From a virus (lineage: Duplodnaviria; Heunggongvirae; Uroviricota; Caudoviricetes), in the IMG/VR virus record IMGVR_UViG_3300025944_000008: 32,192 nt of DNA; one strand, written 5' to 3'. Below are positions 653-4,144 of this stretch, piece after piece. Numbering within the stretch: the stretch's first letter is position 1; each line of letters starts with the position of its first letter. Below the pieces are notes generated by a model, which ran no database searches, was not told where the DNA came from, and saw nothing but the letters and a program-made list of their open reading frames with translations. Position numbers and translations under genes: made by a program.

Positions 653-1168
653 CTACCAGCCCCCGTAGAAGCCGTTGGTCCAGAGATATTCCGAGTGCAT
701 GCCCTGACCCCAACCGAGCTCGATGTTGATCGCGATCTTGAGCTTCTGCTTCTTCTCCTCGTACCGGTTCCCGATGAGCTGCAGCCAGGATTGGATGAGC
801 GGCGTTTTGTCGCTCACCCCCACCTGAATACCACCATCCGAGAAGGTGAGGTGGTTTCTCGTCATCAGGAGACCGATCGACTCGAGAAGAGAAATGACGA
901 TGCCCCGAAGAAGAAGGCTCTTCGAAGGGAAGTTTTGCAGATCAACTCGAGGGATGAGCGGAGGCGTAGAGTTCCAATCGTCGATTGCATCGGCGACGGC
1001 CCACATGATCATCCGGTCCGAATGCTCTTGGCCACGAATGAGCCTGTTGAGCTCCGGGTAGTCCCGAAGGTACAGGCGTACCGTGTTGATGAGTTGTTGG
1101 AGTGGAACGGGGATACTGGGGACATTGTTGCCAACAATATCCCCGTCCACGTCGTCGAAGAACGGCAT
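653..1168 (-). CDS. Virion protein, 171 aa, possibly head-completion/neck adaptor type
   Basis: Globular, well-formed ORF with SD (GAGG), in the operon downstream of the capsid gene. The adaptor call rests on size and position only. Confidence 0.7.
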   Translation of the reverse strand: MPFFDDVDGDIVGNNVPSIPVPLQQLINTVRLYLRDYPELNRLIRGQEHSDRMIMWAVADAIDDWNSTPPLIPRVDLQNFPSKSLLLRGIVISLLESIGLLMTRNHLTFSDGGIQVGVSDKTPLIQSWLQLIGNRYEEKKQKLKIAINIELGWGQGMHSEYLWTNGFYGGW

Positions 1169-1176
1169 GGACTACC

Positions 1177-1599
1177 TCACTTCTTGTCGGTCTTCGGAAC
1201 GTCCAGCTCGTCGAGCTTGTAGGTCTTCTTCTTGGTGACCTCCATCGAGAACACGTCGACGGGGGCGGACTCCTCCTTGGGAGCCTCGGTGGGCGCTGCC
1301 TCGGCCTTGGGCTCTTCCTTCGCCTTCGGCTTGGTGGTGAGCCTCTGCTCGAGCTCTTCCTGCGTGAGCCGAGAGCGGCCAACCTTCCGCATCTTCGAGG
1401 CCTCGTACCACGAAGGGAGCTGGCCGATGACGACGAGCCCATCCTTCTCGAGCTTGCGAAGACGCGCATCCACCATCGATGCCGGGAGAGTGAGGGTCTC
1501 GCCGGGGTCGAGGAGAGCGGTGTAGATGGCAAGACGGGTCGGAGTCTGCTTGGACTCCGGCGCGTCGGTGATGTTCGTGATGCTGACGACCATGCCCAT
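1177..1599 (-). CDS. Hypothetical protein, 140 aa, with a charged low-complexity C-terminal tail
   Basis: SD GGGAGG 6 nt before the ATG; same operon orientation; typical codon bias. Confidence 0.8.
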   Translation of the reverse strand: MGMVVSITNITDAPESKQTPTRLAIYTALLDPGETLTLPASMVDARLRKLEKDGLVVIGQLPSWYEASKMRKVGRSRLTQEELEQRLTTKPKAKEEPKAEAAPTEAPKEESAPVDVFSMEVTKKKTYKLDELDVPKTDKK

Positions 1600-1611: not shown

Positions 1612-2382
1612 TTACTTCTTGCTCTTCGGGTTCTTGGGCTGCGCCTGCGGCTTGGTCTCGACGCGAGTCGTCTCCGCTTGCGACGGCTCTGAGAAGAGGC
1701 TCGAGGCATCCTCGGACGGCTTCGATTCCGGCGTCGGAGTGTAGTTCTCGGGCACGAGCGTCTCGGGGATCAGCGAGGGCTGCGGCGCTGTCCCGCTCTT
1801 CTGCACGCTGGCCTTGGCTCCGGCATCGACCAAGGACTGGGCGAGCTTGGTGGCCGCAGCTTCGTCGACACCTCCCAGCACGATCACAGGAGCCATGCCG
1901 AGAAGGTCGCTTGCCTCCTTGATTGAGAGCTGAGTGCTCTCACGAAGAGCCTTCACCACGCCGATCTGGTTGGTGCCCACTTCGCCCACCCAGACATCGA
2001 ACTCGCCCGGCTGCGGCGAGAGGAGCCCGCCTTCGGACAGAGTCTCCTTGGGAGCAGCAGCCTCTTCGGCGGCAAGCCGCTTCTCCCGCTCGATGATCGA
2101 CTCGGCGGCCTCTTCCGAGTAGCCAGCCGCCATGACTTCTTCCTTCGTCGGGACCCTCCGACCGCCTTCCCCACCGACCTTCTCCCAAGAGACCACACCC
2201 CACTTGTTCCACAGCTCGAGGTTGGCCCTGTTGTGCTCGAAGAGCTCGTCACTGATGACCATCGACTGGCGAATGCGCAGACGACGGCCGCCAATGACTG
2301 GCTCCATTTGCATCTTGGAAGCCTTGCGGTGAAGGAAGCGCTTGTCGTGGTCGAGTGCCGTGTTCTTCAGCTTGTACGACAT
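1612..2382 (-). CDS. Multidomain protein containing a ribosomal protein L7/L12 (bL12) C-terminal-like domain
   Basis: EFDVWVGEVGTNQIGVVKALRESTQLSIKEASDLLGMAPVIVLGGVDEAAATKLAQSLVDAGAKASVQ (nt 1801-2004) aligns end to end with the bL12 CTD consensus EFDVIL...NKVAVIKAVR..TGLGLKEAKDLVE.AP..LKEGV....AE.LK..LEEAGA.VEVK. Start moved to ATG 2382 (GAGAGG upstream). Confidence 0.85.
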   Translation of the reverse strand: MSYKLKNTALDHDKRFLHRKASKMQMEPVIGGRRLRIRQSMVISDELFEHNRANLELWNKWGVVSWEKVGGEGGRRVPTKEEVMAAGYSEEAAESIIEREKRLAAEEAAAPKETLSEGGLLSPQPGEFDVWVGEVGTNQIGVVKALRESTQLSIKEASDLLGMAPVIVLGGVDEAAATKLAQSLVDAGAKASVQKSGTAPQPSLIPETLVPENYTPTPESKPSEDASSLFSEPSQAETTRVETKPQAQPKNPKSKK

Positions 2383-2422
2383 CTCCAACCTCTCGCTTCC
2401 TACCTCCGATTGGAGGTGGCAG

Positions 2423-2468
2423 AAAAAAGCGCCCAGAGGCTGAAGGGATCCTCCCTCCTCTGGGCGCT
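2423..2468 (-). terminator. Rho-independent terminator after the major capsid gene
   Basis: 12-bp stem AGCGCCCAGAGG/CCTCTGGGCGCT (2428-2439, 2457-2468) followed on the minus strand by a T run. Confidence 0.85.
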
Positions 2469-2503: not shown

Positions 2504-3622
2504 TTAGAACTGCGAGACGTTCGGGAACTTCAGACCGGAGTCCACCTTGTTGTTGACCGCACCGAGCTGGTCCTCGTCGACCGGCAGCAGGGCCGCGAAG
2601 CCCGTGTCGGTGGAGGTCGGGGTCACCGACCCGCCGTACAGCTCGAGCTTGGCCATCGACGCGATGTTGATGACCGCCACGGCGACGTCCATCCAGGACT
2701 GCCAGGTGATCATGTTCGCGATCTTGTCGATGTAGAACTTCGTGTTGTTGAGCACGTAGTTCTTGCCGAGGAACTCCGGCGCCGTGAAGCAGTACACGTT
2801 ACCGACGCGGAGGATGTCGGTCTTCACCGTGCGGATCAGCTTGCGACCCAGCAGGGTGTTGTACTTGTAGCCGTCGACCGCGGTCTCCGACTGCATCTTG
2901 TCGCCGAAGTCCTGCAGCGTCCACGACAGGATGTCGTCGTAGTCGGGCTCCGTCATCAGGAGCCGCTCCGCACGCAGGCGGTTGCCGTCGATCAGCTTGA
3001 ACAGGTTCACCAGGTCCGGGCGGAGGATCGGGTGGATGATGAAGTCGTTCGCACCCGCCGCGATGGCGCCCTGGCCCTTCACGACGCGGATCTGCTTCGT
3101 CGTGCCCGCCACCACACTGGTGACGTTCATCGGCTGCACGCCGCCGTTGCCGTCGGTCTGCATCGCCTGGATGCCGGCCTCGACGAACAGCAGCCACGTC
3201 CGATCCTTGACCTCCTGGAGGTCCTTCACCGAGTTGTCCTCGATGATCTTGGTGATCGGCATCTCGTAGGCGAGGAGCTCCTGCTCGGTCTTCTCGAACT
3301 TCTCCGAGGAGATCGTGAAGAAGGGGACCTCGGCACGAGGCGCGCGGATGAAGCGCGCGGTCGGCTGGCCGCGGAAGGTGATCGACAGCGCGCGAGACTG
3401 CGGCTCGATGTCGACGATCTTCACCAGGGTGTCGTGGTTGACCGAGCGCTGGCAGTCGGTGCGAGTCACCGGCTCCGGCGGCTGGATCTTGTCCACGAAG
3501 CACACTTCACGGAGACGGTCACGGATGTAGACCGACCCGACTTCGGCGATCTTCTCCTTGCCCTCCGACGAGTTCAGCTTACCGCTGAACATCTCATTCA
3601 GAACCTGCGCTGGAACGCTCAT
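2504..3622 (-). CDS. Major capsid protein (probable HK97 fold), 372 aa
   Basis: Strongest C/G-ending codon bias in the window, strong SD, followed by a terminator. Order protease - scaffold-like genes - decoration - this gene, and typical size. The fold is inferred from context. Confidence 0.8.
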   Translation of the reverse strand: MSVPAQVLNEMFSGKLNSSEGKEKIAEVGSVYIRDRLREVCFVDKIQPPEPVTRTDCQRSVNHDTLVKIVDIEPQSRALSITFRGQPTARFIRAPRAEVPFFTISSEKFEKTEQELLAYEMPITKIIEDNSVKDLQEVKDRTWLLFVEAGIQAMQTDGNGGVQPMNVTSVVAGTTKQIRVVKGQGAIAAGANDFIIHPILRPDLVNLFKLIDGNRLRAERLLMTEPDYDDILSWTLQDFGDKMQSETAVDGYKYNTLLGRKLIRTVKTDILRVGNVYCFTAPEFLGKNYVLNNTKFYIDKIANMITWQSWMDVAVAVINIASMAKLELYGGSVTPTSTDTGFAALLPVDEDQLGAVNNKVDSGLKFPNVSQF

Positions 3623-3667: not shown

Positions 3668-4144
3668 TCAGATGGTGATCTGGAAGAAGCCCTGGTGGAG
3701 GAACCGGATCTTTCCGGTCGCCGTCAGGCGCGTGACGATGCCGACCACCATGTGCTGACCGGTGCCGGCGGCCTTGATGACGCCGCGCTTCGTCAGACCG
3801 CCGATGGTGCAGTCGGCGACCACCAGGAAGTTGCCCACCGCGAGACCCGCCGTGTTGACGATCGTCGTGTCCGCTTCGTAGGCACCGGCCCACAGCAAGG
3901 TCGACTTGCTGATGGCCTGCGTGTCGTACTGGCCGCGGAGCGAGAACACCTGCCAGGAGGCCGAAGCCGCCTCACCGGTGCCGCGCTTGACGGTGTACGT
4001 CGTGGTATCCATCTCGAGCCACTCGCCATCGACGAGCGGATTGGTGGCGTTCGGGTTGAGGATCGTCGGGTCCGTCAGCGTGAAGTCGCGGCGCTGGACC
4101 GGAAGAACCTCGGAGATCAGGGTCAGGTTTGGAGCCAGGCTCAT
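3668..4144 (-). CDS. Putative capsid decoration/cement protein, 158 aa
   Basis: Beta-rich, Gly/Thr/Val-rich small protein immediately upstream of the capsid gene; SD AAGGAG. Confidence 0.6.
   Translation of the reverse strand: MSLAPNLTLISEVLPVQRRDFTLTDPTILNPNATNPLVDGEWLEMDTTTYTVKRGTGEAASASWQVFSLRGQYDTQAISKSTLLWAGAYEADTTIVNTAGLAVGNFLVVADCTIGGLTKRGVIKAAGTGQHMVVGIVTRLTATGKIRFLHQGFFQITI

Follow-up and report, generated by a model that had tools for sequence, protein, structure and literature searches.

Within a 32,192-nucleotide stretch of tailed-virus DNA (Caudoviricetes; IMG/VR record IMGVR_UViG_3300025944_000008), referred to here as the window, the protein encoded directly 3' of the major capsid gene (gene A, 256 aa) contains a complete, genuine C-terminal domain (CTD) from ribosomal protein bL12 (L7/L12). 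Residues 128-193 cover positions 1-66 of 67 in the Ribosomal_L12 C-terminal profile PF00542 (E 2e-12, 47.7 bits; curated cut-off 25.9), and 14 of 14 PDB sequence matches of gene A are bL12. The domain is 41% identical to the E. coli CTD, and its predicted structure (pLDDT ~90) displays the three-helix, three-strand CTD fold, fitting E. coli 1CTF with a TM-score of 0.94 and a root-mean-square deviation (rmsd) of 0.9 Å. It occurs as a single copy in the whole genome. An earlier reading of the window from its sequence only (the sequence-only reading) had recognised a bL12 CTD fused into the post-capsid protein and had placed it correctly, as a 68-aa segment (1801-2004) spanning the whole domain. 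The bL12/ClpS-like fold that it anticipated for residues ~127-194 is present in the prediction, with bL12 the better fit. The ClpS adaptor belongs to the same fold family as the bL12 CTD but could be ruled out as the identity of the domain: the TM-score is only about 0.6-0.7, identity is 14-21%, the NDD pocket motif is absent from the gene A sequence and there is no Pfam ClpS match.

The N-terminal domain (NTD) through which bL12 dimerises and binds uL10 is missing, as the sequence-only reading had held: the PF16320 profile finds no match in gene A. Normal entry into the ribosomal stalk is therefore impossible. We also considered the helical module at residues 77-110 as a remnant of the NTD, to which it bears a slight likeness by eye, and rejected it, its score against the bL12 NTD profile lying within those of its shuffles. 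The ~125 residues ahead of the CTD had been described as one region unrelated to the bL12 NTD; they are indeed unrelated to it, but can be divided in two, the first part being a conserved domain of 70 aa and the second this optional helical module.

Gene A further differs from ribosomal bL12 (rplL) in that it does not lie beside rplJ, and in its surface. In E. coli numbering, K70, R73, K81, E82 and P91 are kept, whereas K65, G77, G79 and K84 are replaced. The factor-binding positions of the window CTD read Q65, I66, V69, K70, R73, I80, K81, E82 and S84, where K70 and R73 correspond to K144 and R147 of gene A, and K65 and K84 have become Gln139 and Ser158. The full set of K65, K70, R73 and K84, which we take to be the mutagenesis-defined basic patch that recruits GTPases, with K84 presumably part of the same docking patch, is thus not present. 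The claim that VKALR and IKEA preserve the factor-binding surface was overstated: K70, R73, K81 and E82 are retained, but the equation of IKEA with LKEAK, valid for K81 and E82, conceals the replacement of K84, and K65 is lost as well.

These losses are common to the family. Among 11 distinct family copies of the CTD, K65 is kept in one and K84 in none, while position 70 is Lys or Arg and position 73 Arg in all 11, and K/R81 and E82 are each found in nine. Loss of the surface residues in homologues, which the sequence-only reading had named as grounds for abandoning a factor-binding role, has therefore occurred by half. The same search yielded 404 further bL12-type domains, for the most part repeats within non-ribosomal proteins; of these, 80% retain K65 and 84% retain K84. 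Translational GTPases dock at a positively charged site formed by helices 4 and 5 of the bL12 CTD (PMC6753160). K65, K70, K81 and K84 are strongly conserved among bacteria, and with the substitution K65Q EF-Tu is bound less tightly (1.52 µM instead of 0.74 µM) and translation efficiency in vivo is halved (PMC10602876). A patch half lost in this way would be expected to bind GTPases more weakly, not necessarily to have ceased binding them. The gene A CTD thus probably binds translation factors weakly. With K65 and K84 lost throughout the family, it is unlikely to sequester translation GTPases tightly, which leaves room for weak docking, for a decoy function or for a passenger.

The distribution of the CTD is patchy. 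Most gene A homologues lack it, and in the capsid tree it appears in the window clade (L001, L002, L092, L093 and L098) and in a distant clade (L055/L056), implying at least four state changes; P0187, a further protein of the second clade, also carries it. In the closest clade, where branching is poorly resolved, five of 11 loci have the domain and six do not. In the second clade the CTD sits between the N-domain and an HeH-like end, indicating that it was added and did not replace the nucleic-acid-binding end. In a tree of ten family CTDs and 73 further bL12-type domains, the ten formed one side of a branch (90/85, unstarred), which suggests a single capture in the phage group followed by losses or transfer between lineages. 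The domain is under purifying but relaxed selection: the ratio of nonsynonymous to synonymous rates (dN/dS) is about 0.2-0.6, with synonymous sites near-saturated, and the proportion of nonsynonymous differences (pN) is below that of synonymous ones (pS). It also diverges much faster than its carrier, with CTDs 45-55% identical between phages whose N-domains are 77-99% identical.

We tentatively favour, at a little under an even chance, the reading that gene A acts as an accessory in head assembly and that the bL12 CTD, carried in its linker, is an optional module for weak docking away from the ribosome. The 70-aa N-domain represents a core gene: of 99 related loci, 93 have it after the capsid gene (≤2.6 kb downstream and mostly as the first gene). 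This adds weight to the link with capsid assembly proposed in the sequence-only reading, although binding to the head itself is something we infer. In fold, position and architecture the protein resembles head-assembly proteins of the YqbF/lambda gpFI type, a likeness that is suggestive rather than proven: B. subtilis YqbF (2HJQ) and the packaging chaperone gpFI also directly follow the major capsid gene and combine a small α/β domain, a flexible charged linker and an HeH-like helical domain, the last being seen in relatives of gene A. The gene A N-domain aligns with all 49 YqbF residues at 2.4 Å. Gene A itself has a basic tip and no second helical nucleic-acid-binding domain; its relatives show an HHH_5 match and sub-threshold matches to Rho_N and YqbF_HeH. 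The gene A family has no sequence match to PF14553 (YqbF) or PF14000 (Packaging_FI).

In a gpFI-like role, the small N-domain would contact the head or prohead, and the flexible linker would join it to a nucleic-acid-binding end, which would be the basic tip here and, in relatives, domains of the helix-hairpin-helix or Rho_N/HeH-like kind. Inserted modules are tolerated in this linker, the bL12 CTD among them, probably acquired once in the phage group and since lost or moved among lineages. Held on a flexible tether outside the stalk, with K65 and K84 gone and the helix-4 residues, K81 and E82 kept, the CTD would most likely dock a partner weakly and optionally rather than trap GTPases tightly.

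Expression of gene A may be modest. The capsid terminator postulated ahead of it by the sequence-only reading is borne out as a terminator-like hairpin followed by a U-run, kept in ten relatives and with an analogous hairpin and U-run in distant loci; its long loop had let it escape a simple terminator scan. In the second, smaller hairpin, three pairs are changed on both sides among ten relatives. GC content at third codon positions (GC3) is 0.94 in the capsid gene vs 0.75-0.89 in gene A. The conserved hairpin and U-run together with the lower GC3 make reduced expression through terminator read-through plausible.

The most serious alternative, though an unlikely one, is that the CTD is a passenger: a compact, stable fold that happened to enter a linker tolerant of insertions and acts as a mere folded spacer, with a decaying surface and no relevant binding. 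Its absence from most homologues, including the majority of closest-clade loci, accords with this, as do its fast divergence (the L055 copy lies on a branch of 2.15 in the bL12-type domain tree), the other optional modules carried by the gene A linker and the high promiscuity of the domain, of which one search returned 420 copies spread over 165 proteins. Mere decay is harder to reconcile with the persistence of R73, K/R70, E82 and K/R81 amid variable neighbours, with pN < pS, and with the loss of the identical two lysines in both clades, which resembles a retained, altered surface. Were the CTD a passenger, the finding would be an ordinary one.

We regard as rather improbable a model built on the sequence-only reading, in which the CTD tethers or traps EF-Tu, EF-G or IF2 and so concentrates these factors close to assembling capsids or to the capsid mRNA. 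The CTD fold is intact and the equivalents of V66, I69, K70, R73, L80, K81 and E82 are kept; the N-domain is basic, its nearest solved folds being uL30, and it or the tail could hold RNA. The phage also invests in translation: its genome encodes a tmRNA and 43 tRNA genes (G000:C1:7787-8147 and 184547-193890). However, half of the GTPase-recruiting patch is gone, the CTD is present once and has no dimerisation domain, and no translational GTPase was found in a search of the phage's own genome. EF-Tu, moreover, is highly abundant, and a low-level gene, placed behind a terminator and with a codon bias below that of the capsid gene, cannot titrate it.

A decoy role seems about as doubtful. The CTD would here serve as bait that draws off stalk-docking defence proteins, for instance the CRISPR type III mRNA interferase Cami1; with K65 and K84 lost, it would leave host translation factors alone and still attract these proteins. 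Cami1 has been named as an L12-mediated interaction (PMC12179292), and our fold search matched the model to the bL12 CTD chain of a Cami1-70S structure (8PHJ_W, TM 0.87). The selective loss of two GTPase-facing lysines and a patchy, fast-changing distribution typical of counter-defence fit this proposal, but for a counter-defence protein a head gene expressed late and at low level is an unusual home, and no defence system of a known host can be tied to the phage. More doubtful still is a capsid-binding assembly protein with a re-tuned CTD that has shed GTPase affinity and still captures stalk-docking defence toxins, or else brings translation factors together where the head is being assembled; if true, this would be a new, capsid-linked phage use of a ribosomal domain.

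Phage bL12 homologues, mentioned in the sequence-only reading, are indeed on record: bL12 domains occur at varying places within larger phage proteins that have homologues without them, and one such protein co-sedimented with ribosomes but failed to retrieve them in a pull-down (Mizuno et al. 2019, Nat Commun 10:752, PMC6375957). Gene A shares much with these proteins, for example the 418-aa protein of Salmonella phage FSL SP-076: PF00542 at 30-40% identity inside a larger protein, repeated acquisition, homologues of the flanking sequence often without the domain, and a function that is putative or amounts to weak ribosome association. The seven phages of that study, however, are podoviruses under 80 kb, unlike the 210-kb tRNA-rich phage here, whose carrier is a core post-capsid gene, and their factor-binding residues are reported to be conserved (PMC6375957), whereas K65 and K84 are lost family-wide in gene A. 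The phenomenon has thus been known since 2019; what is new is that the carrier is a head gene belonging to a large group of uncultured phages, and that K65 and K84 are lost in common. The gene A family offers a clean test case of why bL12 CTDs are repeatedly inserted into phage proteins, a question standing since 2019, with near-identical carriers with and without the CTD and a two-lysine loss shared across the 11 copies.

bL12 domains were also seen in other settings. Many of the proteins P0016-P0164 (130-1300 aa) have between two and seven bL12 CTDs in tandem, in some cases alongside LRV repeats, and P0055 and P0104 are bL12 with the NTD and two CTDs. The IMG/VR contigs L103 (363 kb), L106 (529 kb), L104 and L105 encode full-length bL12 including the NTD, and could be huge phages or host DNA. 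On a viral contig, a bL12 CTD (L107:2596-2772) ends an AAA/MoxR-like ATPase frame of ~440 aa, assigned as an ATPase from its Walker motifs only.

The window comes from a complete virus record of 210,330 bp (59.6% GC, with terminal repeats). On its minus strand a 158-aa gene (3668-4144) is followed by the capsid gene, gene A, gene B and a 171-aa gene (Table 1); gene A is called as a gene on 22 contigs alongside the same neighbouring genes. The capsid protein matches the PHROG 2522 major head protein (E 6e-9) and the phage G capsid 6WKK (E 7e-6), and its nearest annotated capsids belong to Salmonella phage Arash and to three Vibrio phages (26-28% identity). The N-domains of genes A and B align in HHalign with a probability of 93.7 (E 1.9e-7). 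The A/B pair falls into no Pfam or PHROG family, and the 171-aa gene had no match in family searches.

Table 1 Features of the capsid-gene A region of the window.
Feature	Coordinates	Strand	Basis
Major capsid protein, 372 aa, HK97-type by its matches	2504..3622	-	PHROG 2522, 6WKK, nearest annotated capsids
Terminator-like hairpin (12-bp stem, inner stem) then U-run, between capsid gene and gene A	2423..2468	-	region fold z -4.7
Second small hairpin, just 5' of gene A ribosome-binding site	2399..2419	-	compensatory changes
Gene A, 256-aa post-capsid protein, whole reading frame including stop, ATG at 2382	1612..2382	-	gene call
Conserved N-domain, residues 1-70, small α/β fold, putatively YqbF/gpFI-like	2173..2382	-	conservation, model; gene B paralogy
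Optional two-helix module, residues 77-110 (PTKEEVMAAGY...)	2053..2154	-	in P0001-4 and P0009, independent of CTD
bL12 (L7/L12) CTD, residues 127-194	1801..2004	-	PF00542 profile, PDB matches, model fit to 1CTF
Disordered P/T/E/S tail with conserved basic tip (PKSKK-type)	1615..1800	-	pLDDT < 50 for residues 205-251; basic end conserved
Gene B, gene A paralogue: similar N-domain and low-complexity tail, without bL12 domain	1177..1599	-	HHalign
Conserved 171-aa gene, putative head-tail connector by position	653..1168	-	conserved downstream in most loci

In a large phage group the capsid gene is followed by genes A and B, two unnamed paralogues in tandem (window:1177-2382; loci L001-L099), which points to very widespread, unnamed post-capsid genes in these uncultured phages. 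Zinc-finger/HNH-like endonuclease-type genes, recognised by sequence motifs only, turn up repeatedly either where the capsid gene meets gene A or between genes A and B, apparently a hotspot for homing; they are the first post-capsid gene in L018, L050, L062, L063, L070, L075, L079 and L080, and another lies at L006:1946-2320. A 6.5-kb contig (L108, JAJRBU010000229.1) with a 79%-identical capsid gene and gene A is binned in a Methanoregulaceae metagenome-assembled genome, probably as a binning artefact. Elsewhere in the head region of the window, an 801-aa protein (window:7717-10122) combines a protease-like N-terminal part (PHROG 18299) with an inorganic pyrophosphatase domain (PF18823, E 3e-30).
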